This document shows positions 1 to 54,643 of a stretch of DNA of 64,000 bases, piece after piece (position 1 is the stretch's first letter; each line of letters starts with the position of its first letter). The position numbers and the translations under genes are program-made. This DNA is from a virus. The notes under the pieces are model-generated. The model did not search any database. It was not told the DNA's origin and was given only the letters and a program-made list of their open reading frames with translations. The DNA lies in IMG/VR virus record IMGVR_UViG_3300045988_129625, positions 1-64,000 of that record; one strand, 5' to 3'.

Positions 1-460
1 CAAAATTCAGCACTCTCTTCCAACAAAATTCAGCACTCTCTTCCAACAAAATTCAGCACTCTCTTCCAACAAAATTCAACAGATCAGCGTTTTAAAACAG
101 CATTCTGTAGGTTCTTCAAACAAGATTAAGGATTGCAGTGCTTTAAAACAGCATAATGTAGGTTCTTCCAACAAAATTCAACAGATCAGCGTTTTAAAAC
201 AGCATTCTGTAGGTTCTTCAAACAAGATTAAGGATTGCAGTGCTTTAAAACAGCATAATGTAGGTTCTTCCAACAAAATTCAACAGATCAGCGTTTTAAA
301 ACAGCATTCTGTAGGTTCTTCAAACAAGATTAAGGATTGCAGTGCTTTAAAACAGCATAATGTAGGATTTTCCAACAAAATTAAGACTTACAGCGTTTTT
401 AAAACAGTATTCTGTAGGTAAGAGTTAAGGACTGCATTATGTGAGTATTTTTTTCAATCG
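1..460. repeat. Tandem direct-repeat array: 3 x 23-bp unit (1-69, caaaattcagcactctcttccaa) followed by about 3.6 copies of a 102-bp unit (70-171, 172-273, 274-375, degenerate partial to ~440); each 102-bp unit is itself two diverged ~51-bp half-repeats; array runs off the window start
   Basis: Direct reading: exact 23-mer x3, then near-identical 102-mers at period 102; last copy carries substitutions (ggttcttcc->ggattttcc; caacagatcagc->aagacttacagc). Confidence 0.9.
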
Positions 461-489
461 GAATGTATAACAATTAAAACATAAACAAC

Positions 490-750
490 ATGAACGTATA
501 TGACTTTGCGCCTGACTTAGATTTGAGTAAGGAGGGAGAAGGTTCTATTTTTGGGGTAAGAGGAATAGAAGGTAGTGATGGTATAGTATATGCTAAGGTA
601 GTTAGCTGTGAAGAAGTTAAGGATTACAGTTGTGAGGGGTGTATTTTTAATGATTGTTATAAGAATGAATGTTTATTATCGCGTAGTAATAGTTGTATGG
701 ATGGAGATTGGATTTGTAGGTACGAACAGGCTGCCATAGAGGGGGAGTAG
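490..750 (+). CDS. hypothetical Cys-rich small protein (paralog of 2328..2576)
   Basis: ORF 86 aa; N-terminus MNVYDFAPDLDLSKEG vs MEVITFGPDMDLSSKEVG and shared C..CIFND..C pattern with ORF 2328..2576. Confidence 0.5.
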   Translation: MNVYDFAPDLDLSKEGEGSIFGVRGIEGSDGIVYAKVVSCEEVKDYSCEGCIFNDCYKNECLLSRSNSCMDGDWICRYEQAAIEGE

Positions 751-857
751 GCGGCGCCTTGGGCTAAGGCCTGCGGTTGTAGGTGGAACGTAGGTCGGAG
801 CAGAGCCGGAACAGTTTATTGTGGAACTAAAAAAAATAAAAAGGAGGAGATAGCGAT

Positions 858-938
858 ATGAAAAAGGCATTTAAGATATTTTCTATTATGTTTGTCATAG
901 AAATAGTGCTGATAGCTATTTTAGATGCTATGGCGTAA
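858..938 (+). CDS. 26-aa hydrophobic peptide MKKAFKIFSIMFVIEIVLIAILDAMA (single predicted TM helix)
   Basis: ATG at 858 preceded by strong SD-like AAAAGGAGGAGAT 6-8 nt upstream, rare in this genome; below the 60-aa ORF-track cutoff. Confidence 0.35.
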   Translation: MKKAFKIFSIMFVIEIVLIAILDAMA

Positions 939-980
939 GTGAGAAAAATTTCTTCATTAATTTTCTTATGCTTTAGACAG

Positions 981-1010
981 AATGCTCCCATCTGCGAAGA
1001 TCGGAGCATT
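981..1010 (+). terminator. stable hairpin, candidate intrinsic terminator/processing structure
   Basis: AATGCTCC(981-988)/GGAGCATT(1003-1010) perfect 8-bp stem, inner ATCT/AGAT with GCGA (GNRA) tetraloop, followed by TTGCTTTAT. Confidence 0.4.
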
Positions 1011-1017
1011 TGCTTTA

Positions 1018-1062
1018 TGGGATTCATGGTGCGGTAGGCTGGTTCGATTCCGGCGATCTCAC
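1018..1062 (+). ncRNA. tRNA-like minihelix (acceptor stem + T-arm, no D/anticodon arms)
   Basis: T-arm GCTGG-TTCGATT-CCGGC (1038-1054) with canonical GGTTCGATTC T-loop; 3' strand GATCTCA (1055-1061) pairs 7/7 (2 G-U) with TGGGATT (1018-1024); discriminator C1062; only 13 nt between 5' strand and T-arm. Confidence 0.3.
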
Positions 1063-1085
1063 ACAACATTAAAATAGGGAAGAAC

Positions 1086-1490
1086 ATGTTAAAAGAAGAA
1101 TTTGAAGAACTGATTAAAAGGGAGGTAAACGAAAATCAGTATAAAAACATAGAAACGGCATACGAGGCTTTGCCGGAGTATATGGATAAGATGTATTTAG
1201 CAAGTGCTATTTCAAATGATATTGGGAAAGCTATTAATGTCTTATCGTTTTTAGGATCGTATATAAGCGAGTTAATGGGTTCAATAATAATCGAAAGGCA
1301 AAAGGTGGAATCATGTGCCTATGATTTAATAAATAAATCGCATGAGGAGGATGACTTGAAAGCAAGAGAGATTGCCGTGCGATTAATAGGAGAGAGGGAA
1401 ACAGTGGCATACACAGTAAAAGAAGGGCTGCCATTGTGGGAACAAGATAAAAAGTTTATAATAGAATTGATGAAGGAGGAAAGAAAATGA
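1086..1490 (+). CDS. hypothetical protein (134 aa)
   Basis: ORF in co-directional packed array; stop overlaps next start (ATGA). Confidence 0.55.
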   Translation: MLKEEFEELIKREVNENQYKNIETAYEALPEYMDKMYLASAISNDIGKAINVLSFLGSYISELMGSIIIERQKVESCAYDLINKSHEEDDLKAREIAVRLIGERETVAYTVKEGLPLWEQDKKFIIELMKEERK

Positions 1491-1828
1491 AAGATGGTAT
1501 TACATTACATCCAGAACACGGATTGAATCCGTCTATAGAAGTCTGCATGATATGTGGCGAAGAGATGGGGATTGCTTTATTAGGGAATAACATCAAAGGG
1601 CAGGCGCCGCATCATATATGCACGGGAGAAATATGTGACAATTGCAAAAAGATAATAGATGACGGAGGTTGTTTTATTATCGAAGTCGAGGATGGATCAG
1701 ATCAAAAGAATCCGTATCGTACAGGGAGATATTGCGCGATAAAGAAAGAAGCAGCAAAGAAAATACTTGGACAGGAACATAGTGTTGTGTACATGGAAAA
1801 GTCTGCATACAGTCAAATAATACCATAA
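1487..1828 (+). CDS. hypothetical Zn-ribbon-like protein (CMICGEE..., CDNCKK)
   Basis: ORF 113 aa with two CxxC pairs; ATGA overlap with upstream ORF. Confidence 0.55.
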   Translation: MKDGITLHPEHGLNPSIEVCMICGEEMGIALLGNNIKGQAPHHICTGEICDNCKKIIDDGGCFIIEVEDGSDQKNPYRTGRYCAIKKEAAKKILGQEHSVVYMEKSAYSQIIP

Positions 1829-1842
1829 AAATAAAGAAAGAT

Positions 1843-2154
1843 ATGTTTACAAAAGAAGAGCGATTATTCATATGGAAAAAGGTATATGAGATGATTGATA
1901 GGCAAGAGGATGGGGAATACATATGTGTTGCATTGAGAAATGTAGTATTAATGTTTTTCAAAACACATAATTTTTATGAGTTGAGTTCAAATAAACTGGT
2001 GAGGATATATTTCCCGGAATTGGAAGAGAAGATAGGTATGGCCACAGAACCAGAGGAAACAAGAACGTTTTATGGGTGGTTTGGTTGTATTAGTCCAGAA
2101 ACGAAGGAGATAAGGCTGAATATTGTAAAAGATATTATAAAAAAATTAGAATAG
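1843..2154 (+). CDS. hypothetical protein (103 aa)
   Basis: ORF in array. Confidence 0.5.
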   Translation: MFTKEERLFIWKKVYEMIDRQEDGEYICVALRNVVLMFFKTHNFYELSSNKLVRIYFPELEEKIGMATEPEETRTFYGWFGCISPETKEIRLNIVKDIIKKLE

Positions 2155-2213
2155 TATTTTTGTTAATCTATTTTATTCATCAAATTAAGTTTTGGGTTTT
2201 GGCATGTCGGTTC

Positions 2214-2307
2214 GTGAGGATAGGCATGTCTATTTCTGTATCATAGAGGGATGGCGCGGCGTGCCGGTATGTATGTGTCGGTCCTGGTTCGATTCTGGGT
2301 ATCTCAC
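2214..2307 (+). ncRNA. tRNA-like element, non-canonical (~94 nt)
   Basis: T-arm CCTGG-TTCGATT-CTGGG (2283-2299) and 3' acceptor strand TATCTCA+C closely matching element at 1038-1062 (shared GGTTCGATTCyGGyrATCTCACAmAACA and upstream ATGGyGCGG); TGAG(G)ATA at 2214-2221 can pair with the 3' strand with one bulge; internal GGCGC/GTGCC mini-hairpin; no canonical cloverleaf or anticodon loop found by eye. Confidence 0.25.
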
Positions 2308-2327
2308 AAACAATAAAGCATAATCAT

Positions 2328-2576
2328 ATGGAAGTAATAACATTTGGTCCAGACATGGATTTGTCTTCTAAAGAAGTAGGAGACGTATTTAGATTAAAAT
2401 TGCATGGCATAGAGTGTGACGTCAAAGTAGTTGGTGACGACGAAGACCCTCCTATGTTCTGCAAAGATTGTATATTTTTTAACGACTCTGAACGGTGTTC
2501 ACTCTCAGAATCGCAAGACTGGTGCCTAAAAAAGCAAGTTGTTTACTGTAAAATAAGACATGATGGGGAAATTTAA
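2328..2576 (+). CDS. hypothetical Cys-rich small protein (paralog of 490..750)
   Basis: ORF 82 aa; paralogy noted above. Confidence 0.5.
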   Translation: MEVITFGPDMDLSSKEVGDVFRLKLHGIECDVKVVGDDEDPPMFCKDCIFFNDSERCSLSESQDWCLKKQVVYCKIRHDGEI

Positions 2577-2751
2577 TACGAAAGACGCCAATTTCTTGTG
2601 GTGTCAAATTGGTAGGATTGATGGGGTGATAGAAACTCTGAACCGCACCGGAGGAGAGATGCCGGAGATTATAGCCGGAGTGCTAAAAAGAATAAGAGAT
2701 GATATAGATAAGTTTGTAGACAATAAAACGAAAGATTATGAGAATATATAG
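2560..2751 (+). CDS. hypothetical protein (63 aa)
   Basis: ORF in array. Confidence 0.4.
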   Translation: MMGKFNTKDANFLWCQIGRIDGVIETLNRTGGEMPEIIAGVLKRIRDDIDKFVDNKTKDYENI

Positions 2752-2971
2752 GAATGATATTATAAAGGCGTCAGCGATAAGCACAGGCAACGACAGAGGT
2801 TTGTTGTTGTGTTCAATAACAGATTCAGGCTTTACGTCTATAGCGAGCGTGATATCGGCCGTTAAAGACAAGTTACCAAACAAAGATCACAAGAAGATGG
2901 TTTTTGAAATTTTGAATGATACGAAAAAAGAGTACGGAAGATATAATAATTGCGGAACAAAAGTATTGTAA
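2738..2971 (+). CDS. hypothetical protein (77 aa)
   Basis: ORF in array. Confidence 0.4.
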   Translation: MRIYRNDIIKASAISTGNDRGLLLCSITDSGFTSIASVISAVKDKLPNKDHKKMVFEILNDTKKEYGRYNNCGTKVL

Positions 2972-3024
2972 TAAAGAGCAGAAAACAATATGTTTATGTA
3001 ATGTTAGTTTTTTCATTTTTATTG

Positions 3025-3070
3025 AAAGGAGCGCCGGCCTGTGAAGGTATGTGCTCCTTTGTATTTGTAT
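3025..3070 (+). terminator. intrinsic terminator candidate
   Basis: AAAGGAGC(3025-3032)/GCTCCTTT(3053-3060) perfect 8-bp stem with GC-rich 20-nt loop, then GTATTTGTAT. Confidence 0.45.
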
Positions 3071-3673: not shown

Positions 3674-4483
3674 ATGATATTAAAAACGACAACCAACGAA
3701 TTTTGTTTCATTAACGTAAGTTTCTATGAAACAGTAGCAGACCCGCGTCATTTCTTTTCACAGGAATATGATGAGATGCCGGAATATGAAGAAGAATCAG
3801 ATTTTGATTTTGATTCTTATTGCAATAAGTTTATTCCTTTTGTACAGGAATGGGCGAATAAGGTGGGCGAACGCCTTTATGAATATGGTGTGAATAACAT
3901 AAAGGTAATATCGGTCGGACATCCAAAAGATCGCAATTATGGTACTGATTGGATGGATGTAAGGGTAGAGTTTTGTGATGAATGGAGGCAAAAGATGTTA
4001 TCTAACATTGGTAAGATTGCCAATGATGATAAATGCAAGAAGTATGCGGAGGCTAATTACCGGTCGGTATCAGGATACATCTTTTTAGGGCCTGAAGATT
4101 TAAAGGAATTTGAAAAGGAAATAATAGAAAGAAAGTCAGATTCGGGATATGATGTAACAATATTGTTAAATATGTATCTAACTTTGGCTTTTGTAAAAGA
4201 ATTTGGATTTAAAGCCGGAGAAGCATGGAGTGAAATAACAGAATATGCTTACGGATGTTTGTCGTATTCTGATTTTGCAACAACAGAAATGCTTATACCG
4301 GAAGGTTCGGAGCATTTATTCAAAGACATTTACACGGCAAAGGCCGACGAATTATATCATCATGTCCTGGATAAATTCGGATGGGCGTGGCGTGATCCGA
4401 AATATAAGTCAGAAACAGAATTATGCGCAATGTTAAAATGGGCAAAAGAAAAAGGCTTGGCCATTGAAGAGTTAAGTATTTAA
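3674..4483 (+). CDS. hypothetical protein (269 aa)
   Basis: Long ORF; upstream hairpin CGTATGTT/AACATACG at 3625-3648. Confidence 0.6.
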   Translation: MILKTTTNEFCFINVSFYETVADPRHFFSQEYDEMPEYEEESDFDFDSYCNKFIPFVQEWANKVGERLYEYGVNNIKVISVGHPKDRNYGTDWMDVRVEFCDEWRQKMLSNIGKIANDDKCKKYAEANYRSVSGYIFLGPEDLKEFEKEIIERKSDSGYDVTILLNMYLTLAFVKEFGFKAGEAWSEITEYAYGCLSYSDFATTEMLIPEGSEHLFKDIYTAKADELYHHVLDKFGWAWRDPKYKSETELCAMLKWAKEKGLAIEELSI

Positions 4484-4510
4484 TTGTTAAACATAAGGCA
4501 GTAGTGGTGC

Positions 4511-4795
4511 GTGAGTATAGGTGCTGCCGTTAAAATATTTTATAAGATGAAAAAAGAAGAGATTCAAACTATTTTATACACAATCAAAGAAGGAGACAGT
4601 ATTAAGATCAAAGTACAAGACAAAAGTGAAGAGATAAGACTGCGGGATCATGTAAGAAGAGTACAGAAATACGGATACAGATTTTGTTTGTCTCATTTAC
4701 ATGATGGAATTTTCTATCTGGAGAAGTTAAAAGAAGGGGATAAGGATAAATACTATAGAGTAATAAACAGAGGAAATGGAAAGACCGGAGTATAA
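4511..4795 (+). CDS. hypothetical protein (94 aa)
   Basis: ORF in array. Confidence 0.4.
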   Translation: MSIGAAVKIFYKMKKEEIQTILYTIKEGDSIKIKVQDKSEEIRLRDHVRRVQKYGYRFCLSHLHDGIFYLEKLKEGDKDKYYRVINRGNGKTGV

Positions 4796-5685: not shown

Positions 5686-6159
5686 ATGAAAGAAGAAGTA
5701 GAACGGATAAAGAAGTTGGTAGGCATAGATCATAACAGATGGGAGCAACCTTGTACATGTGATAAATGCAAGAACATGTGTAAGGTTCCTTGTATTGGTA
5801 CGCCAAAAGACATAGAGGCTATCATAGATGCCGGATACGCTGACAGGTTAAAAGGAACAATGTGGATGGTAGGGTATCTTGCAGTGAAAGAAAAACCAAT
5901 AACGATGATCCAGCCAACAGAGAAAGATGGGTGGTGCGCATTCCGCCGGCCGGACGGTCTATGCGAGCTGCATGACCGTGGACTAAAGCCGACTGAAGGA
6001 GTTCTGGCTTCTTGTAAGGTGGTTAAAGAAGACAATGTTCCAACATACGAAACATCCGTACTTAGAGCAGTAGCTCATGAGTGGGTTAAAGTGGAGAACT
6101 TTGGAGATGTAATGAGGGTCGTTTTTAAATTTTTGCATGAAAATGAACGTAGAAAATGA
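5686..6159 (+). CDS. hypothetical Cys-rich protein (157 aa)
   Basis: ORF; CTCDKCKNMCKVPC motif. Confidence 0.55.
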   Translation: MKEEVERIKKLVGIDHNRWEQPCTCDKCKNMCKVPCIGTPKDIEAIIDAGYADRLKGTMWMVGYLAVKEKPITMIQPTEKDGWCAFRRPDGLCELHDRGLKPTEGVLASCKVVKEDNVPTYETSVLRAVAHEWVKVENFGDVMRVVFKFLHENERRK

Positions 6160-6547
6160 ATTAGATAAAGTAGTTAAGATCCTAAAAGAAAAAGGATTTG
6201 TAGTATATAGAAAGGGTGGAAAAGAGCCAGGTGTGTTTTACGCTAAAGAAGGTGACAGTCGAATAGGGTTCGTTTATCCTAATAACGGATATATATATGA
6301 CAGAATAAAAATGTGGTCTTTTTCAAGAATGTACAAACCACATAAGAAAACCGGATCTTCGTGCTTAATGTGTGTCAGCGACGAATTTACGATAGAGAAT
6401 GCGATTAAGAACATAGAGGATAGACTGTGGGTAAATTACATAAAAGACGGTAGCAGAAAACGACCAGAAGAATATAAAAATATAAGAGAATTTGTTGGTA
6501 GCTTCACTAAATTCTACAGCTCTGTAGAATTAGTTGAAGTTAAGTAG
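6137..6547 (+). CDS. hypothetical protein (136 aa)
   Basis: ORF in array. Confidence 0.55.
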   Translation: MKMNVENELDKVVKILKEKGFVVYRKGGKEPGVFYAKEGDSRIGFVYPNNGYIYDRIKMWSFSRMYKPHKKTGSSCLMCVSDEFTIENAIKNIEDRLWVNYIKDGSRKRPEEYKNIREFVGSFTKFYSSVELVEVK

Positions 6548-6625
6548 TTTTCCATGTAAGTTAGTTGCCGGCACTGGTCTGTGAAGATAGGTGTCGTTTT
6601 TTTTATTCAAGGAAGGAGGACAAAG

Positions 6626-10164: not shown

Positions 10165-11220
10165 ATGAACAATTCAATGGTCGCTCACTTATGGGCAAAC
10201 GAAAAGCAAGAATCAGCAAATGGAAGTAACTTCTATTTTGAAGGTGAAAGTATTTATTCCTATGGAAGACGTTTTGAGGTCGGAAGAATCGTGCGAAACA
10301 AGCGTGGAGAAAAGGCGTATTTGATTAATGACATATATCGTTCCTCTTCCACAAGCAAACATCAATGTTGTGTTCGTAACGCAATACCAACTGGCTCAAA
10401 GGTATTCAGTGTTGGATATAATATGTCAAATACTGGTAATATGGCATTTGTCACCAGTGGGTTGGAATCCATTAAAGATGCTATTGAAAAATACAAAAAA
10501 GCAAGAACCGAATTGTCCTATCGAGATATTTGGGGAGCGTTTAAAAATCTGATGGATTATATTGAGTTCTTTGATATGGGAACTCCCCAACGTCTTCTTA
10601 AAAAGAGTGCAAACGAATGGCTTAGAACTAACCATGAATTATCATATAAATCAGATAAGATTAAACGTGAGCATGTCCGTGAATTGAAACACATTTTCCA
10701 GATATTGTTGAATCATCAAGCACTGGAAGTCCTTGGAACCGTTAATGTGATTGTAGATGAAGTTTGCGGGGAAGGTACATGGATTAAGTATTCAGAAAGA
10801 TCTGAAAGATGGAGAAAGGGTGAGGAAGAAAGAATAAAATTAGAGAGATTAAGAAAGGAAGAAGAAGCCCGTTACAAGGATTTTGATGAAAAACTGGAAG
10901 AGTGGAAGTCAGGAGAAATAAATTTCTTGAATACACCTTTCTATATTCCTGGTGAAAAACCTAACGCCTGGATCCGTATAAAAGGAAATATTATTGAGAC
11001 AAGTAAACAGATAAAGATTGGAATAGCAGAAGCCAGAAAACTGTGGCGGGCTGTGTCGGCAATGCACCGGGGCGCCGAGTTTCGGCACGGTCTGGTGGAG
11101 GACATCACCGGTCACCAGTGGAGTCTAAATCGGTACGAAAACGATTTGCTAACCGCTGGATGTCATAGGATAGCATATAACGAAATGGAGAGAACAGCAA
11201 AACAACTGGGATGGGTTTAA
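10165..11220 (+). CDS. hypothetical protein (351 aa) with Lys/Glu-rich coiled-coil segment and GC-rich patch near C-terminus
   Basis: Long ORF. Confidence 0.6.
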   Translation: MNNSMVAHLWANEKQESANGSNFYFEGESIYSYGRRFEVGRIVRNKRGEKAYLINDIYRSSSTSKHQCCVRNAIPTGSKVFSVGYNMSNTGNMAFVTSGLESIKDAIEKYKKARTELSYRDIWGAFKNLMDYIEFFDMGTPQRLLKKSANEWLRTNHELSYKSDKIKREHVRELKHIFQILLNHQALEVLGTVNVIVDEVCGEGTWIKYSERSERWRKGEEERIKLERLRKEEEARYKDFDEKLEEWKSGEINFLNTPFYIPGEKPNAWIRIKGNIIETSKQIKIGIAEARKLWRAVSAMHRGAEFRHGLVEDITGHQWSLNRYENDLLTAGCHRIAYNEMERTAKQLGWV

Positions 11221-11260
11221 GTAACCCATCTTATTTTATAACAATTAAAAACGAAAAGAT

Positions 11261-11998
11261 ATGGAAAATCCAATTATTGTTCCGTTTGATTTAAATACGG
11301 CGAGAAAAATCAAAAGCGGAGAAATAGAAGGTTCGGTATTAATTAATGATATTGAAATAGAATTTGTATATGAGTCGAAAAACTGTGCAAGTCCTTATAA
11401 TTTGCTTTTTGTAAAAAAAGATGGATATGGGATAAGCGCTATATATGCTAACACAGAAGGTTGTACTTTTGCTGACGCCACTCTGGAATTGAGGGTAGAG
11501 GCTGGAGCGTATTTTAAGAAAGGAGATGTATTAACAAGCACTAAAGGATGTCAATTTATATATGATGGACTTATTACCAAAGGGGTAATGGGAAGTATAT
11601 GTGGAATGGTAACATCTGGAGATATTGAGTTTGATTGCAAATTATGGACTGATGTGTATGATGGATATAAAAAACGGCATGTAAGAAAGGCTATAGAAGA
11701 AGAGAAGAAATTTTTAGCAGAAAAGATTATAAAAGTCGAAGACAGTAGAAAAATAGATATAATAAAACGATATTTAAGTGAATATGAGTATCTATTAGAT
11801 GAGATGCCGAAACACAATCTCAAACCATTTGAACGAGTGTTGGTGAGAAGAACCAACCAAGAGAGGTGGAAATTGCATCTATTTTCCAGAAAATCAGAAG
11901 TAGACGACAAATATGAATGTTTAGGAGGCGTAACATTTAGTCAGTGTATCCCATACAAAGGGAACGAGCATCTTTTAGGAACTAATAAAAACAAATAA
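11261..11998 (+). CDS. hypothetical two-domain protein (245 aa); parent of downstream split paralog
   Basis: N-domain PFDLNTARKIKSGEIEG; C-domain KPFERVLVRR..ECLGGVTFSQCIPYKGNEHLLGT. Confidence 0.6.
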   Translation: MENPIIVPFDLNTARKIKSGEIEGSVLINDIEIEFVYESKNCASPYNLLFVKKDGYGISAIYANTEGCTFADATLELRVEAGAYFKKGDVLTSTKGCQFIYDGLITKGVMGSICGMVTSGDIEFDCKLWTDVYDGYKKRHVRKAIEEEKKFLAEKIIKVEDSRKIDIIKRYLSEYEYLLDEMPKHNLKPFERVLVRRTNQERWKLHLFSRKSEVDDKYECLGGVTFSQCIPYKGNEHLLGTNKNK

Positions 11999-12002
11999 GA
12001 TT

Positions 12003-12401
12003 ATGGAACAGAAAACAGTAACAATTCCGTTTGATTTAGAAACGGCGAAAAGAATAAACATAGGGGGAATAGTAGGTCGGATTGTGACAGAGAAAGGACG
12101 AAATAGAGCAGAAATAGTATATGAAGACAATTCGTCAAGTTGTCCGTTATTGGTTGTGATTCATTCGATTTCTGTATCGGCAGATTGGTTTTCTGCTACA
12201 GGAAAAGCACTTAGCAGCGAAAATCGCCTCCTTCTTGAAGTTCCGGAATATATTACATTTAAAGATGGAGAGGTGTTAAGCAACGAAGATGGAAGTTTTA
12301 TTTTTATTTTAAATATACATGGGAAATATTTAACATCTTTTTATGTGAGTCTTGCAGCGGGAGTAGGTCTTAATATATCGGATAATTTTTTCTGCATGTA
12401 A
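12003..12401 (+). CDS. hypothetical protein, paralog of N-terminal domain of 11261..11998
   Basis: IPFDLETAKRINIGGIVGRIV aligns to N-terminus of upstream gene. Confidence 0.5.
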   Translation: MEQKTVTIPFDLETAKRINIGGIVGRIVTEKGRNRAEIVYEDNSSSCPLLVVIHSISVSADWFSATGKALSSENRLLLEVPEYITFKDGEVLSNEDGSFIFILNIHGKYLTSFYVSLAAGVGLNISDNFFCM

Positions 12402-12450
12402 TAACGAAATAGAACGCTATAGACTTGCAACAGATTCGGAAAAACAGAGG

Positions 12451-12741
12451 ATGATTAAAGCGTTAAAGAAAAGCAAAAATCCTAAAGCAAAAGAATATCT
12501 AAAACGCTTCTTCGGAATTGAAGAAGAGCCGAAATATGATTTTAAGCCGTTTGACAAAGTGCTGGTAAGAGACGAGGACGATAAAGAATGGCATATCAGC
12601 TTGTTCGCAAGGGAAATTGTGGACGATTCTGATGGATTGTCTTATAAGTATGAATGTTCCAATGGAACATTATGGGACTGTTGCATTCCTTTTGAGGGCA
12701 ATGAATGTCTTTTAGAAACTGCTGAAAATCCAGAAAAATGA
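12451..12741 (+). CDS. hypothetical protein, paralog of C-terminal domain of 11261..11998 (reading frame is open from 12367, overlapping the previous ORF in another frame)
   Basis: KPFDKVLVRDEDDKEWHISLF..YECSNGTLWDCCIPFEGNECLLET aligns to C-domain of 11261..11998. Confidence 0.5.
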   Translation: MIKALKKSKNPKAKEYLKRFFGIEEEPKYDFKPFDKVLVRDEDDKEWHISLFAREIVDDSDGLSYKYECSNGTLWDCCIPFEGNECLLETAENPEK

Positions 12742-14236: not shown

Positions 14237-14899
14237 ATGAACAATTTTGTAATAGATACTCCAGATAATTTCTGGCAAATAAGATGGCTTGACAAGTATA
14301 TGGAGGGCCACAAAGGGTTCATAGCTGGTGGATGTTTTAAGAATATCCTTTCCGGAGAAAAGGTAAAAGATATTGATATTTTCTTTGAAAGCGAAAGCGA
14401 TTTTCAGGAAGCTGTTGATTTGTTCAATGATGAAAAACATCAGAAAGAAGGATGGAAATTTAAGTATAGGAATGAGAAGGTATGCGCATTCCAGAAAGAG
14501 GGAGAAAAGGTATGGGTAGAGTTCATAGAGTCAGAGTTCGGAAAGCCAGAAGAGATTCTCAGGAGCTTCGACTTTACTGTGGCAAAAATGGCCTACTATA
14601 AGGAGCCTAAATACGAAGAAAAGGAAGATGATTATTTTCCATTCTCATCTGCAAGTATAGTAGCATACGAGTACAAACTACTCTATCATGAGAAATTCTT
14701 CGAACATCTTCATATGAAGAGGCTGGTTATTGACGAAAATATCCCTTTTCCAGTAAGTACATGGGAAAGGTCATATAAGTATAAGGGGTATGGTTACAAT
14801 ATGTGTAGGGAGACAAAGAAAAAACTTCTACGGGCTCTTAAAGGTGTAAATGTAGAGGAGGAAGATGTATCTTTGTACACTACTGGAGGATGGGATTAA
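14237..14899 (+). CDS. Pol-beta superfamily nucleotidyltransferase with CCA-adding/poly(A)-polymerase-like head motif
   Basis: IAGGCFKNILSGEKVKDIDIFF matches GGxVRDxLLGxxxxDxDxx (G-[GS], 11 residues, D-x-D) of class II tRNA nucleotidyltransferases; the same spacing also fits the OAS/CD-NTase GS..D.D pattern. Confidence 0.55.
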   Translation: MNNFVIDTPDNFWQIRWLDKYMEGHKGFIAGGCFKNILSGEKVKDIDIFFESESDFQEAVDLFNDEKHQKEGWKFKYRNEKVCAFQKEGEKVWVEFIESEFGKPEEILRSFDFTVAKMAYYKEPKYEEKEDDYFPFSSASIVAYEYKLLYHEKFFEHLHMKRLVIDENIPFPVSTWERSYKYKGYGYNMCRETKKKLLRALKGVNVEEEDVSLYTTGGWD

Positions 14900-19170: not shown

Positions 19171-19572
19171 TTAAGCCAAATTAAATCATTTTGAATCTTT
19201 TTTATTATCAAAAGACATATCTTTGCCCAAAAAAAACAAACATAATGGAAGAAAAAGAGATAAAAGAAGCAATAATCGAGAATAATGCATAACCCATACA
19301 AATCATAAACAATTTGTATTGTATTATGCATAATAGCCAAAAGCTATTCCGATTATTAGCCTAAGTGTTGAAACAAACACTACGTTATTTAAGAATAGAT
19401 AGTTACCTACGGATGTTTGCCCAAGTTCGTAGCTCTAAGGTAAGTGATTAAACAGTTCTGGTATTCAGGAACAGTGTTGCTTACAAAAAAAACCTTAAAT
19501 AACATTGGCGATGGGTACTAACAGAGTTTCACTCTGACTTATGTTGAATAAACATTAAAAACGTTTGTAGAT
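19171..19572 (+). ncRNA. candidate IscB omega RNA / IS200-605 left-end region
   Basis: 400-bp non-coding stretch immediately 5' of iscB; nested hairpin ATGCATAA-ATACAAAT-[cataaaca]-ATTTGTAT-TTATGCAT (19285-19331); TTACCT..AGGTAA/CTACG..CGTAG structure near 19390-19440; CAGAGT-ttc-ACTCTG and ATGTT..AACAT stems just before the ATG. Confidence 0.5.
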
Positions 19573-20799
19573 ATGGTGTACGTACAAGACATAAATGGTA
19601 AACCTATGATGCCTACAACAAGGCATGGTAAGGTTAGGAGACTGCTTAAAGACAAAAAGGCAATCGTTGTAAACCTATGTCCGTTTACCATCAAATTAAT
19701 GTACGTAACATCTGATTACAAACAAGAAATTGTGTTAGGCGTTGATGCTGGTACTAAACATGTTGGTCTATCGGCTACAACGAAAAGCAAAGAACTTTAC
19801 AGCAGTGAAGTTATTCTTAGAAATGATATCGTAGATCTTTTGTCTACCAGAAGGGAGCTACGAAGATCAAGACGAAATAGATTGAGATATAGAAAACCTC
19901 GTTTTGATAATAGAATAAAAAGTAGGCGTCCGGGATGAGTAGCACCTTCGGTGAAATACAAAGTAGACGCCCATATTCGTGTTATTGACAATGTATGTTC
20001 TATATTACCAATATCTCGTATTGTTATCGAAGTAGCTCAATTTGATACTCAAAAGATTAACAATCCTAATATATCAGGTAAAGAATATCAGGAGGGTGAT
20101 CAACTTGGATTTTGGAACGTTAGGGAATATGTTTTAGCAAGAGATGGACATAAATGCCAGCATTGTAAGGGAAAGTCAAAAGACCCAGTATTGAATGTTC
20201 ATCATATTGAATCACGAAAGACAGGTGGAGATTCCCCATCTAATCTTATTACCTTATGTGAAACTTGTCATAAAGAATACCATAAAGGTAATATAGATTT
20301 AAAGATCAAACGGGGATCGTCGCTTCGCGACGCAGCCGTAATGGGAATAATGAAATGGAGATTGTATGAAGAACTAAGGTCTAAATACAACAGAGTTTCT
20401 ATGACTTTCGGTTATGTTACAAAATACAATAGGATTAAACATGGTATTGAAAAATCTCATGTTTTCGATGCATTTGTTATTTCTAAAAACTTTGATGCTA
20501 TAAGGTTAGGATATTATTATAAAGTAAGATTAGTAAGAAGACATAATCGTCAGATCCATAAACAAAAGATTCCAAAAGGAGGGATAAAAAGACCAAATCA
20601 ATCTCCTTTTGAAGTTTTTGGTTTCCGATTGTTTGATAGGGTTATGTTTGAAAACAGTTATTATTTTATATTCGCAAGGCGTAAAACCGGTAGTTTTAAT
20701 ATTCGAGATATTGATGGTAAAAACCAAAGAGATATTACATACAAGAAATTGAAATTATCAAGGTGTAAACGCTTTATGGTACAAAAGGAAATGGATTGA
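19573..20799 (+). CDS. iscB: IscB RNA-guided nuclease (PLMP-RuvC-I-bridge helix-RuvC-II-HNH-RuvC-III) interrupted by one in-frame TGA at 19936-19938
   Basis: PLMP-like N-term (KPMMPTTRHGKVRRLLK), RuvC-I LGVDAGTKHVGLS, Arg-rich bridge helix RRELRRSRRNRLRYRKPRFDNR, RuvC-II IVIEVAQFD, HNH CQHCKGK..NVHHIESRK..LCETCH, RuvC-III SHVFDAF; ORFs 19573-19938 and 19951-20799 are in the same frame, separated only by TGA + 12 nt. Confidence 0.85.
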
Positions 20800-40170: not shown

Positions 40171-40953
40171 TCATATCGTAAAATTAAGTGTTTTTTCTAA
40201 TATCAGATATTCAGTATGAACTTTACTTCCGCCATCATCTACCAAGTCCAAATTAATATAAGCTGTATATGATACATGATGATCACCAGGAGCAGGACGT
40301 TTCATTTCTGGTAAGAACATAGAATTTAAACCTTGGCCAGACCATGATTCTGGATATGGCAAAGGTGTAAAGTCGGCATCTGTACATCTTACAACCCAAG
40401 TAAGATTAGGATCTGCCCTAACTATTCTATCATGAGGTCCATCAATTACAAGATCTGGCATCTCATATTGGTAACTATCATAATTAAGGACAATAGGATC
40501 ACCAAAGTTTACACCGTATATAGCAGCAGGTGGAGTAAAGCTTGTTATTAAAAAAGTTCTATTAACCCTATTGGTTGTTCTTAGTGTAAACTCATCAGAT
40601 GCTATCACACTTACTCTAAATCCATAATAAGGAGAGGTTGTTAAAGCAATAGCAAGAACCACTGAATCCTGTTCAAGCAATTCCTCTGTCGTATCAACCT
40701 GACTATCGATCTCTTGCCTATCTTCCATTGGAACACCGCCTTGGACACTTATGGAATCCAGCCGTTCTTTTTTAGACAGAAAGATAAATTGCCCACCCTG
40801 TGGAATGGTGCCTACTTTCTTTCCTTCTACGATTACCCCCATCCCTATTTGAAATCTTCGTCTCATGATTTTTGTTTGCAAGATAGCAATAATTGACAAC
40901 ATAAAAGAAACCGGTTCTCTATCATCTCTGACTGAGAACCGGTAAGAAAACAA
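40171..40953 (-). CDS. hypothetical protein (260 aa), possibly structural
   Basis: ORF, first gene of the minus-strand module. Confidence 0.6.
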   Translation of the reverse strand: MFSYRFSVRDDREPVSFMLSIIAILQTKIMRRRFQIGMGVIVEGKKVGTIPQGGQFIFLSKKERLDSISVQGGVPMEDRQEIDSQVDTTEELLEQDSVVLAIALTTSPYYGFRVSVIASDEFTLRTTNRVNRTFLITSFTPPAAIYGVNFGDPIVLNYDSYQYEMPDLVIDGPHDRIVRADPNLTWVVRCTDADFTPLPYPESWSGQGLNSMFLPEMKRPAPGDHHVSYTAYINLDLVDDGGSKVHTEYLILEKTLNFTI

Positions 40954-47562: not shown

Positions 47563-47592
47563 AAGCCATCTAACTTCTCAGTCTGATGGCTT
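47563..47592 (-). terminator. hairpin terminator for the upstream minus-strand gene
   Basis: AAGCCATC(47563-47570)/GATGGCTT(47585-47592) perfect 8-bp stem; A-run on + side = U-run on the minus transcript. Confidence 0.45.
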
Positions 47593-52689: not shown

Positions 52690-54260
52690 ATCCCACTATG
52701 ACAAACCCTAATGAGCCAAAAATATCTTTCAACATTAAACAACCAGAGGTGGGATCTCGTTGTTCATTGTTTCTGAAACAAAGATAGGAACAGAATCTTA
52801 AATAGCAAATATTTTAATACTTTTTAAAACGATCAGGGCCCGCATCACTGCGAACCCTGATCTACATTAATCTAAACTAATACCATGAAAAACTTAAATC
52901 TAAAAACTAAAGAACACACAAATGTAGGTGATTATATATCACCTTACGCCAGAAGCGTAAAGTGATACACATTTATACGGAAATCCGTACTGGGTTCCAC
53001 CAAAACCCTCTACCTTCTGGTAACATCGTTACATCAAAGGATTCTTTTTCTGATTTTCTAATGATGTTAAAAGCACCATTAATGTCAGCATTGATGATCT
53101 TACCAAACGAGGTTTTAAACAATCCCCGTTTGGTTCTTCTTCCTTTGTAAGATTCATGTTTGCAAATCCGTTCATTATCCAAAAAGCTACATTTTGAAGT
53201 ATAAGATTCTTCAACAATCTTAACATTAATACCTTCTAATGTTGCTTTATAAGATATCATTGAGATAAACATATTAAAAGGAATAGATACAAAGTTCTGA
53301 TTATTTCGTTTTCCAATATTGATCTCTTGTTTCCAGCATTTGTTATGACCGATTATGATCGTGTTAATACCATTGGAAACTACGTGATTAACCAATATCC
53401 TACTTGCCTTATGAAGATAATCTTTGATCTTATTATTCCTTTTGTTAGTTAATAACCTGATTTGTTTTGAAGTATGTTTATTATCTTTTAATTTAGATTT
53501 TAAATATGAAAGTCTTTTGTTATAATACTGGTTGATAGACTTCAGTGGTCTACCATTGATGATAAAACAAGAACCGTTATTAGAAACACAAGATGCTAAA
53601 TTATCTAATCCTATGTCGATACCAAGATAAGATCCATTATATGACATAAGATCCTTTTCCTTCTTATTGTAAACTATTTCAAGAATAATGTACCCATTCT
53701 TAGGAATGAATCTAAGTTGTTGGATATTTTGTTTATTGGTTCTTGTTGTAAAGGAAAACTGTTTTGGTAACTTAACAATGCCTTGTTTTATCCATTTTTG
53801 AGAAAAAGCATTTGTTGCAAAAACAGCAGGAAACAAACCATCCTTGTTGAGATACTTTGGCATTCTTACTTCCTCATAATACTCACCTCTATTCTTTTTA
53901 TTTAAAAGATTGAAGAACGATTTAAAGTTTCTATCAACCATCATCAACACTTGTTGAGCAACCGGTACTGGTAAAGCACGATAGTCGACATCGTTTTCTG
54001 TTTTTAGTTTCTTTTCAAGAGAATAGTAGTTTAGGTATTTGTATTTTACAGTATTATCATCTTTATATTGAAAATAATGTTGCCTAACAACATACAATCC
54101 TTTGTTGTATAAGTTTTTACACTTATGCAACAGGTCATAAAGTTCATTGTAATAGACAGAACTTGGCTTGATCGTATGTTGTTCAACTAATCTCATGGCA
54201 CAAATGTATGAAAATGTATGCTTTTCACAAAGAATCTGTATCCTATTCTTTTGTGTGATT
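52690..54260 (-). mobile_element. IS605-family TnpB-only element or its relic; ends approximate
   Basis: About 300 bp non-coding 3' of tnpB with three perfect hairpins (GATCAGGG..CCCTGATC, GGTGAT-tatata-ATCACC, CTTACGC-cagaa-GCGTAAG) and ~450 bp non-coding on the 5' side. Confidence 0.35.
52973..54196 (-). CDS. tnpB: divergent TnpB-like protein lacking the canonical RuvC-II Glu and the CxxC zinc finger
   Basis: RuvC-I YLGIDIGLDNLA; the YIFIEDLNIEGMK position of the other TnpB reads TIIIGHNKCWKQE; YTSKCSFLDNERICKHE replaces CxxC..CxxC; RuvC-III INADINGAFNIIRK retained. Confidence 0.8.
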   Translation of the reverse strand: MRLVEQHTIKPSSVYYNELYDLLHKCKNLYNKGLYVVRQHYFQYKDDNTVKYKYLNYYSLEKKLKTENDVDYRALPVPVAQQVLMMVDRNFKSFFNLLNKKNRGEYYEEVRMPKYLNKDGLFPAVFATNAFSQKWIKQGIVKLPKQFSFTTRTNKQNIQQLRFIPKNGYIILEIVYNKKEKDLMSYNGSYLGIDIGLDNLASCVSNNGSCFIINGRPLKSINQYYNKRLSYLKSKLKDNKHTSKQIRLLTNKRNNKIKDYLHKASRILVNHVVSNGINTIIIGHNKCWKQEINIGKRNNQNFVSIPFNMFISMISYKATLEGINVKIVEESYTSKCSFLDNERICKHESYKGRRTKRGLFKTSFGKIINADINGAFNIIRKSEKESFDVTMLPEGRGFWWNPVRISV

Positions 54261-54643
54261 CAAGACATGGGATATAGTTCTGATACTTAATCCGGTTTGA
54301 TTTTGTATCAGATTATAAATATAAGATTTTGAAACTACAGTTCTTAATTGACCTAAATCATTCATAATGTTTTTATACATAAGATGAATGCTGTTGTTAC
54401 GTTTGATGGTACTGATTCTCATTTCCTACTGTTATTAGTTACGTTCGGTTCTTACTTTTTCTTTATTTCCATAATCCCTTCCTGAAACTAATATTGCAAA
54501 CTTAATAAAAATAATTCATAAACAATGAAAATCTAACTTTTCTTGTATGTTGTTGATATACGTGCATATGCAAGAAAAGTGAGACTTTCACAAGCCCCAC
54601 TTCCCAAATTGTAATTATAAAAAACTATATATGTGTACAAAAA

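Follow-up and report, generated by a model that had tools for sequence, protein, structure and literature searches.

What do two short intergenic sequences that end like transfer RNAs contribute to a gut phage? We addressed this question in the first 64,000 nucleotides of the IMG/VR virus record IMGVR_UViG_3300045988_129625 (the window), where a first-pass annotation, made from the letters alone, had marked a longer tRNA-like element around 2201–2310 as a repeat of a shorter upstream one. We found that element 1 (E1, 981–1062) and element 2 (E2, 2201–2307) are two-module RNA structures on the transcribed strand that join a hairpin to an anticodon-less tRNA mimic and are not decoding tRNAs. Their structure, conservation and strand, the absence of an anticodon and a parallel with the phage's real tRNA cluster are all directly observed. 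The two elements are paralogous structured units, as had been suspected, and repeated RNA processing signals, one of the functions first suggested, would be their best functional reading: from sequence comparison, we tentatively favor the view that E1 and E2 once were hairpin-tRNA units and have been kept as cis-acting processing signals for RNase P and RNase Z.

Window positions 400–3000 share 94.8% identity with phage csAssE-Sib (OR575929.1; 151 kb; human gut), the closest named record, and the element region is kept in more than 170 IMG/VR gut-phage contigs as well as in OR575929.1. Therefore, E2 is not a chance arrangement. From related loci we extracted 39 distinct variants of E1, 44 of E2 and 34 of a third copy, E0, that lies before the window, and diversity was computed on 50 collinear variants. 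All homologues are close relatives, and consequently covariation is mostly one-sided. Literature searches returned no description of this phage or of such elements.

The shared 3′ signature was confirmed as first described, with CCTGG-TTCGATT-CTGGG-TATCTCA-C at 2283–2307 and its counterpart GCTGG-TTCGATT-CCGGC-GATCTCA-C at 1038–1062. The claimed upstream echo is also present, ATGGCGCGG (2251–2259) resembling ATGGTGCGG (1026–1034). A T-arm pattern (5-bp stem with G53/C61 and a TTCRANN loop) occurs only at these two sites on both strands of the whole 64 kb. ARAGORN called zero tRNAs or tmRNAs in the window and, across the window and 16 loci, genuine tRNAs alone. The Infernal comparison that the first-pass annotation had suggested, carried out on 131 nt with Rfam models, gave no match at E ≤ 10 to tRNA (RF00005), tRNA-Sec, other tRNA-clan models, tmRNA or YrlA (RF02553). 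At gathering thresholds, Rfam reported HEARO alone, elsewhere in the window; at E ≤ 10, the bare E1 T arm matched beta_tmRNA with 9.8 bits and nothing else tRNA-like was returned.

The 5′ partner of the E2 signature proved to be different from the one first proposed. The first-pass annotation had closed a ~94-nt structure by pairing TGAG(G)ATA, placed at 2214–2221, with the TATCTCA 3′ strand. The motif actually lies at 2215–2222, where it occupies the loop and 3′ strand of a local hairpin (2201–2230). Over the 44 variants in related genomes, the long-range helix is 86% paired, its last pair is broken in 39 and covariation is absent. An alternative fold, in which the local hairpin is combined with an adjacent acceptor partner, AGGGATG (2247–2253), is 98.7% paired in the same 44 variants. 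The GGCGC/GTGCC mini-hairpin proposed inside the longer structure does not hold either, as its second pair is broken in 30 of 42 variants and its outer pairs fail. Single-sequence folding z-scores are unremarkable (−0.2 to −2.4), so that thermodynamics alone is uninformative.

The anatomy of E2 can be read from 5′ to 3′ along the + strand, which carries every feature of E1 and E2. Between the stop codon of the open reading frame (ORF) at 1843–2154 and the hairpin is an AT-rich spacer (2155–2200), the region's most conserved stretch, with a diversity of 0.004 compared to 0.063 at third codon positions. It possibly holds a promoter or protein-binding signal; inspection of the conserved AT-rich spacers for sigma-70 or Bacteroidetes-type promoters, by scanner and by eye, yielded nothing convincing. 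Module 1 is the hairpin GGCATGTC-G-GTTC-GTGA-GGAT-A-GGCATGTC (2201–2230), with 8 bp, a 1x1 mismatch, 4 bp and a GNRA tetraloop, and it includes the formerly proposed 5′ partner TGAGGATA (2215–2222). It is paired in 98.9% of cells over the 44 variants; two of its pairs are altered on both sides (UA to CG and CG to UA) and several others switch between GC and GU or between UG and UA. A U-rich single-stranded linker, TATTTCTGTATCATAG (2231–2246), follows. The TCTAT/ATAGA stem that minimum free energy (MFE) folds place in this linker was rejected, being broken by the variants TCCAT and CCAAT.

Module 2 begins with the 5′ strand of an acceptor-like stem, AGGGATG (2247–2253), at the position equivalent to TGGGATT in E1. 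G2248–G2253 pair with T2300–C2305 and A2247 is mismatched with A2306; the stem is 97.7% paired over the 44 variants, and its changes are one-sided only (GU to AU, GC to GU, and GC to GU or GA). The connector GCGCGGCGTG (2254–2263) is nearly invariant (diversity 0.027) and possibly forms a 3-bp CGC/GTG mini-hairpin in the D-arm position, the inner three pairs of which never vary. Next is an extra arm, CCGGTAT-GTAT-GTGTCGG (2264–2281; 7 bp, 4-nt loop), which takes the position of an anticodon or variable arm without an anticodon loop. It is 98.6% paired with five pairs varying one-sidedly, evolves rapidly (diversity 0.089), and has been removed in variants L004 and L119 by a natural 14-nt deletion between GTGCCGG repeats. 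The T arm, CCTGG-TTCGATT-CTGGG (2283–2299), has a loop that is invariant in all 44 variants and a stem that is 99.5% paired, with CG/UG, UG to UA or CG, and GU/GC switches. The acceptor 3′ strand TATCTCA and the discriminator C2307 complete the element (2300–2307). CCA is not encoded after C2307, where AAACAAT comes next, and from ~2311 onward conservation gives way to hypervariable DNA. In one variant (L093), the 5′ hairpin is absent and the mimic is retained. A 52-aa coding sequence (CDS; WOZ57404.1 in OR575929.1; L001:2541–2699, window ~2164–2322) is annotated over E2. Its frame is not preserved, as near-identical relatives carry frameshifting indels (a G run 3 to 6 long, the 14-nt deletion and a 22-nt duplication). 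Therefore, this CDS is a mis-annotated structured RNA, which corrects the GenBank protein-gene annotation.

E1 is built in the same way with a smaller second module. Its hairpin, AATGCTCC-C-ATCT-GCGA-AGAT-C-GGAGCATT (981–1010), has an architecture identical to that of E2. Three of its pairs are altered on both sides (AU to GC in 15 variants, UA to CG and CG to AU), a level matched by none of 500 shuffles. Module 2 (1018–1062) is a minimal tRNA top half, with a 7-bp acceptor stem TGGGATT (1018–1024) / GATCTCA (1055–1061), a 13-nt connector, the T arm GCTGG-TTCGATT-CCGGC and the discriminator C1062, and it is without any internal arm. Acceptor stem and T loop are invariant in the 39 variants; the T stem is 100% paired with CG/UG swaps, and the 3′ half of the connector varies freely. 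An extended T-arm hairpin suggested by the MFE fold (GGU/AUC, GUG/CAC) is disrupted in the commonest variant, GCAGCAA, and was discarded.

The third element, E0, was found in relatives (L007:1556–1663), ~1.9 kb upstream of E1 and ~0.9 kb before window position 1. Its 5′ part is an H-type pseudoknot, with AGTACG/CGTACT interleaved with GCCTGTA/TACGGGC. Its D-armless mimic consists of the acceptor TGGTTGT/GCAACCT, an internal arm, the T arm TCCGG-TTCGATT-CCGGA and a discriminator C. The E0 structure is 96.9% paired over 34 variants, and seven pairs, spread over both pseudoknot stems, the internal arm and the T stem, are altered on both sides, which was reached by none of 500 shuffles. Compared to E1 and E2, both acceptor strands differ and pairing is retained. 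E0 was called neither by ARAGORN nor in GenBank, where a hypothetical CDS annotated in csAssE-Sib probably overlaps its pseudoknot. The order E0-E1-E2 is constant in every relative while the flanking genes come and go.

A separate GC-rich block at 751–830, almost invariant (diversity 0.005–0.06) within an AT-rich region, contains GTAGGTCGG-AGCAGAG-CCGGA, with a non-T loop. It matches the T-stem flank of the commonest E1 variants in relatives (GTAGGTCGG-TTCGATT-CCGGC), the window's own E1 having GTAGGCTGG, and it is possibly a relic or a fourth, divergent element.

We compared diversity within the elements to that at third codon positions of three conserved genes, which is 0.063 with 175 of 352 sites polymorphic. 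The acceptor stems and T arms of E1 and E2 have a diversity of 0.034 (11 of 62 polymorphic) and the T loops of 0.003 (1 of 14), compared to 0.117 in the E1 connector and 0.089 in the E2 extra arm (8 of 18). The low diversity of the top half, the arm deletions in L004 and L119 and the hairpin loss in L093 together indicate that selection acts on the top half. The stems stay paired through GC/GU and UA/UG switches, and the hairpins also by changing both partners of a pair. Only an RNA of the + strand accounts for the many conserved G-U pairs. All neighboring genes are on that strand, in a long arm of genes that share one direction and comprise small unknown genes together with replication genes (including DnaB, a primase and helicases).

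The hairpin of module 1 is found well beyond the two elements. Its exact architecture occurs 4 times in the window compared to 0.03 times in shuffles, and 12 copies compared to 2.6 are found when one outer mismatch is allowed. A structural scan located, on the + strand, GGAGCGCC-G-GCCT-GTGA-AGGT-A-TGTGCTCC (3028–3057), 3′ of the stop of ORF 2738–2971 with no mimic after it; 4498–4527, 3′ of the stop of ORF 3674–4483; and 6568–6597, 3′ of the stop of ORF 6137–6547 and followed by TTTTTTT. On the − strand, two copies with the exact architecture flank a 2140-aa virion gene, one downstream (40912–40941) and one upstream (47563–47592, followed by TATTTTTT), and copies with the 1x1 mismatch were scanned at 52832–52861 and 54575–54604. 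These additional copies lie between ORFs, mostly just 3′ of stop codons, with U-rich tails and an apical G-GYYY-GUGA-RRRU-A; the 1x1 mismatch of the family is often G/A, and an A(G)TTTTTTC-like motif often stands 20–30 nt upstream. The hairpins lie 40–140 nt after stop codons and have U-rich tails, and a consensus terminator scanner calls none of them because of the internal mismatch. The best Rfam result is an 11-bit match to a Bacteroides sRNA terminator. The family may be a terminator, a processing site or a protein-binding (boxB-like) element.

One further copy connects this hairpin to authentic tRNAs. The phage has a genuine Met-Gln-Arg-Cys tRNA cluster, in which CCA is encoded in none of the tRNAs. 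Directly before tRNA-Met is the hairpin TATGCAGG-C-GTCT-GTGA-AGGC-T-CCTGCATA followed by TTTTTAA (L082:545–582), a hairpin of the same type with a 7-nt U-rich linker, and an ORF begins 16 nt after tRNA-Cys. Because it immediately precedes tRNA-Met, this hairpin is part of the pre-tRNA leader and must be transcribed and read through. Consequently, E1 and E2 correspond to hairpin-tRNA units in which the tRNA has been stripped of its D and anticodon arms.

The processing mechanism that we favor builds on what remains. The top half of a tRNA (acceptor and T arm) is the part recognized by RNase P, RNase Z and CCA-adding enzymes. We infer every enzymatic step that follows. RNase P would cut just 5′ of the acceptor stem, at ~1017/1018 and 2246–2247/2248, leaving the upstream mRNA with a protective hairpin at its end. 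RNase Z would cut after the discriminator, at 1062/1063 and 2307/2308, freeing the downstream mRNA ~20 nt before an ATG, and the excised minihelix may then be CCA-tailed by a phage nucleotidyltransferase. At the real tRNA cluster, release by RNase P and RNase Z occurs of necessity. In the window, the next ATG comes 23 nt after E1 and 20 nt after E2; in relatives, it comes 16–23 nt after E0. The mimics contain what a minimal substrate comprises, ~12 bp of coaxial acceptor and T stems (7+5 bp in E1, 6+5 bp in E2 and 6–7+5 bp in E0), a T loop and a single-stranded leader and trailer, here 5′ linkers of 7 nt and 16 nt and A-rich trailers. Their T arms have the T54-Psi55-C56-R57-A58 loop and the G53-C61 pair of tRNAs, and the loops are invariant in the 44 and 39 variants. 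RNase P substrates are known to include non-tRNAs such as phage RNAs and polycistronic mRNAs (review PMC11143913).

Several points weigh against this mechanism. The acceptor stem has 7 of 7 pairs in E1, all invariant, and 6 pairs plus a 1-72 mismatch in E2 with one-sided changes only; neither helix shows any double compensatory change. Support for these stems comes from invariance, one-sided changes and the comparison between paralogues. By our own estimate, an acceptor partner with 6 of 7 pairs would be expected by chance within 130 nt ~80% of the time. The mismatch at position 1-72 of E2 is A/A or G/A, and a G/A occurs at 7-66 in 6 of 44 variants. Other intergenic copies of the hairpin have no mimic, and therefore a mimic is not required at every boundary. 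If the hairpin and U tract were an efficient terminator, little read-through RNA containing the mimic would be left.

A candidate for the tailing step is encoded at 14237–14899 (+). Its motifs and fold identify a 220-aa class II tRNA-nucleotidyltransferase-like protein (CCA-adding enzyme / poly(A) polymerase head). It contains GGxFKNxLxGxxxKDIDIFF and FDFTVTK (motif A/B-like) and matches the phrog_1614 nucleotidyltransferase (E 1.4e-9). When its AlphaFold2 model (pLDDT 76) was compared with the PDB by fold, each of the 40 best matches was a CCA-, A- or CC-adding enzyme or poly(A) polymerase I (best E 1.9e-4), and the GenBank annotation of the csAssE-Sib orthologue agrees. Pfam missed the protein, while its homologues carry a precomputed PF26128. 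The protein is roughly half as large as known enzymes. Both the mimics and the tRNAs that lack an encoded CCA could receive one from it.

Comparison with known systems indicates where the elements are conventional and where they depart. Canonical tRNAs (RF00005) share the TTCGATT T loop, G53-C61 and probably an acceptor stem (7-bp) stacked directly on the T stem. The phage's own Met, Gln, Arg and Cys tRNAs share the single discriminator base, the unencoded CCA and a short gap to the next ORF, and its tRNA-Met also shares the upstream hairpin and 7-nt linker. Unlike canonical tRNAs, the mimics have no anticodon or D arm, measure 45 nt (E1) and 61 nt (E2), are missed by ARAGORN and Rfam and cannot decode. 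MALAT1-mascRNA and mitochondrial tRNA punctuation are eukaryotic or organellar precedents in which tRNA-shaped processing signals have been shown experimentally. As in those systems, a tRNA-shaped module stands within a longer transcript, and recruitment of RNase P and RNase Z is the sole task proposed for it. In MALAT1, a triple helix protects the 3′ end of the upstream RNA; here a GNRA hairpin would do so, and the excised mimic would likewise be CCA-tailable. The differences are that ours is a DNA phage of gut bacteria with putative processing, and that mascRNA keeps its cloverleaf whereas E1 has only the top half.

The 3′ tRNA-like structures of turnip yellow mosaic virus (TYMV) and tobacco mosaic virus (TMV) resemble E0, which also joins an H-type pseudoknot to a tRNA mimic, and those of TYMV are RNase P substrates (PMC11143913). 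However, the TYMV and TMV structures are located at the 3′ termini of RNA genomes and form the acceptor arm from a pseudoknot, whereas the phage elements use an ordinary helix and are internal to DNA-encoded transcripts. Module 1, a repeated post-stop hairpin with an internal mismatch and a U-rich tail, is reminiscent of T7 RNase III sites, intrinsic terminators and T4-type promoter early stem-loop (PeSL) cassettes, and like phage intercistronic hairpins it is found at junctions that gain and lose small genes. Unlike these, its 13-bp stem is short for RNase III, and the apical G-GYYY-GUGA-RRRU-A suggests specific recognition and matches no described family.

If the processing mechanism is true, an abundant lineage of human-gut phages punctuates its polycistronic transcripts with stripped-down tRNA mimics that retain solely the part read by RNase P, RNase Z and CCA-adding enzymes. 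Mitochondrial tRNA punctuation and MALAT1-mascRNA would then have a counterpart in a prokaryotic virus, with phage 'tRNA genes' kept for processing and not for decoding, and tRNA-like debris that tRNA finders miss would be accounted for. Three RNA motifs are new to Rfam: the E1/E2 type, the pseudoknot-bearing E0 and the intergenic hairpin with its GUGA cap.

The mimics could instead be stand-alone, trans-acting small RNAs, such as a Ro60 ligand, a CCA-tailed and perhaps alanine-charged minihelix, or a decoy for host factors or defense toxins that recognize tRNA acceptor ends. We consider this unlikely, although several observations are in its favor. The near-identical csAssE-Sib encodes both a TROVE/Ro60 protein and the CCA-adding-like enzyme. 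Bacterial and phage Y RNAs are modular, joining a stem to a tRNA-like domain, and YrlA of M. smegmatis is cut by RNase P and CCA-tailed (PMC4201824). In addition, three different 5′ modules and the mimics are each under purifying selection, and G3:U70, the identity pair of alanyl-tRNA synthetase (AlaRS) and tmRNA, is invariant in E1 and present in 42 of 44 E2 variants. Like YrlA (RF02553), the elements combine a helical module with a tRNA-like module having a canonical T arm, and occur in phages that encode Ro60.

The details fit less well. The 5′ and 3′ ends of YrlA pair into a Ro-binding stem that encloses the T arm, an acceptor-like stem-loop and the D arm (PMC4201824), whereas E1 and E2 carry their hairpin on the 5′ side of an acceptor stem with open ends. 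The D arm is absent, as is the motif GNCGAAN0-1G, E1 having only UGCGAAG inside its tetraloop, and neither E1 nor E2 is matched by the Rfam YrlA model at E ≤ 10. The known Y RNAs are encoded no more than ~4 kb from rsr, the gene for Ro60, and on its strand (PMC4201824). In csAssE-Sib, rsr is at 73,091–74,725 (+) whereas the elements are at ~148.6–150 kb and ~0.5 kb (−), ~75 kb away on the opposite strand, and a separate YrlA-like candidate (weak match) adjoins rsr. Y-RNA membership was rejected on position, model and motif. The tRNA-like domain of tmRNA likewise has an acceptor and T arm without an anticodon arm, and shares G3:U70 with E1 and E2; unlike tmRNA, the elements have no tag frame or pseudoknot ring (13–46 nt separate the acceptor strands) and they have a C as discriminator where tmRNA has an A. 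E0 has G3-C70 in place of G3:U70, and two E2 variants have lost the latter pair; an AlaRS- or tmRNA-like identity was therefore rejected as a feature of the family.

A second and still less likely explanation is that E0, E1 and E2 are functionless, decaying tRNA pseudogenes left by hairpin-tRNA duplications, their conservation reflecting the recent kinship of the sampled phages. A graded erosion is apparent, E2 being cloverleaf-like with a tetraloop arm, E0 D-armless and E1 a top half only. The E1 connector (0.117) and E2 extra arm (0.089) evolve at or above the synonymous rate (0.063), the block at 751–830 bears an apparent relic T arm with a non-T loop, and a more distant phage, whose homologue of a neighboring protein is 60% identical, has no such element in 12 kb. 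However, conservation in the T loops and acceptor stems far exceeds that at synonymous sites, and the substitutions in the stems all preserve pairing. In E0, the T stem and the internal arm both contain compensatory double changes, and the order of the three elements is fixed in all relatives despite the turnover of flanking genes.

Less probable again is a role for the excised mimics as a family of minihelices, without an anticodon, that the phage makes: host tRNA-processing enzymes would release them, the 220-aa protein would add their CCA, and they would serve as Ro60 ligands, alanine acceptors (through G3:U70 in E1 and E2) or decoys for defense systems or toxins.

Do the elements instead work as DNA, in recombination or integration, as attP-like tRNA 3′ fragments or cassette-exchange anchors? 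We regard this as improbable. The first gene after each element is variable: E1 is found with or without a 134-aa gene, E2 with or without 82-aa and 63-aa genes, and E0 with a 56-aa or a 68-aa gene. Conservation drops just downstream of the E2 3′ end, and a 10-nt direct repeat, ACAATAAARC, stands on both sides of the insertion at 2328–2737. These gains and losses, together with the drop in conservation, identify the spacer after the mimic as a tolerated insertion point; post-element indels are equally expected if this spacer is simply the only harmless place to insert. The integration signal proposed by the first-pass annotation was not supported, as 185,579 species genomes contain the 3′ signature in no bacterial tRNA, and only in a 3.9-kb phage-like contig and one chance match. 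An integrase was not found among the neighboring ORFs scanned, and the GU wobbles, compensatory changes and invariant T loop reflect an RNA fold, not identity with a host target. The 3.9-kb contig (L202, NZ_DXLG01000138.1), assigned to a Veillonella metagenome-assembled genome, is a piece of this phage (E1 and a 113-aa gene), and its placement there is probably a binning artefact rather than evidence of the host.

The least credible proposal, a ~94-nt non-canonical and possibly suppressor tRNA closed by TGAG(G)ATA (2215–2222) and TATCTCA (2300–2306), draws on 6 of 7 pairs being possible in most variants, on G2219A occurring together with C2303T in csAssE-Sib (compensatory if G2218 bulges) and on a TGA-interrupted iscB reported by the first-pass annotation, and it is highly improbable: most GAGAATA variants retain C2303, so that consistent covariation is absent; the 5′ strand is taken by a hairpin with its own covariation that recurs elsewhere in the genome; the analogous upstream TGAGA in E1 is lost in some variants with the 3′ end unchanged; and a 7-nt anticodon loop is absent, the sole internal arm of E2 having a 4-nt GUAU loop and being deleted in two natural variants. 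With no anticodon arm and no call by ARAGORN or Rfam, a suppressor tRNA is effectively excluded.

The surroundings of the elements bear on the remaining claims of the first-pass annotation, which saw symmetric placement with paralogous Cys-rich genes and suggested, as one option, a duplicated cassette boundary. The Cys-rich ORFs at 490–750 and 2328–2576 are indeed paralogous (39% identity over 70 aa, E 1e-7). The symmetry is loose, as E2 abuts the gene at 2328 whereas a GC-rich block and a 26-aa ORF separate the gene at 490–750 from E1. The elements do stand at cassette junctions, since relatives differ in whether they have the first gene after each; they do not bound a duplicated cassette. 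The symmetric placement is one of two hypervariable paralogous genes, both being spots with a diversity of ~0.3 compared to ~0.03 around them. The gene at 2328–2576, together with the ORF at 2560–2751, is missing in most relatives, and the ACAATAAARC repeats that flank this insertion are at 2310–2319 and 2720–2729. The 134-aa gene after E1 (1086–1490) is also an indel; many relatives lack it, and there the 113-aa Cys-rich gene (window 1487), with its Shine-Dalgarno sequence, comes directly after E1. Between the GC-rich block and E1 is MKKAFKIFSIMFVIEIVLIAILDAMA (858–938), a hydrophobic ORF of 26 aa that is conserved and has a strong Shine-Dalgarno sequence. Farther upstream, tandem repeats fill 1–419, with 3.4 copies of a 23-nt unit (1–78) and 3.5 copies of a 102-nt unit made of two 51-nt half-units (62–419). 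Their copy number differs among relatives and many metagenomic contigs end here; they are possibly iterons or a regulatory array.

Outside the window, csAssE-Sib carries its TROVE/Ro60 locus at 72.5–74.7 kb (L211:10571–11090 and 11091–12725), with the gene preceded by the weak YrlA match, a tRNA-Tyr and a tRNA-Lys. Each of these follows a repeated GGTGATGG...ACTTCGAA leader, and these may be Y-RNA-like modules built around whole tRNAs. A single phage with Ro60, a YrlA-like RNA, a PNK-phosphatase and a minimal CCA-adding-like enzyme is a compact system for studying viral manipulation of tRNA-related pathways. Within the window, HEARO (IscB omega-RNA) matches at 19330–19522 with 113 bits and has an HNH-type ORF downstream (19951–20799), and a TnpB-like transposase ORF is present at 52973–54196 (−); the HEARO/HNH and TnpB-like loci are OMEGA-type elements within the phage genome.

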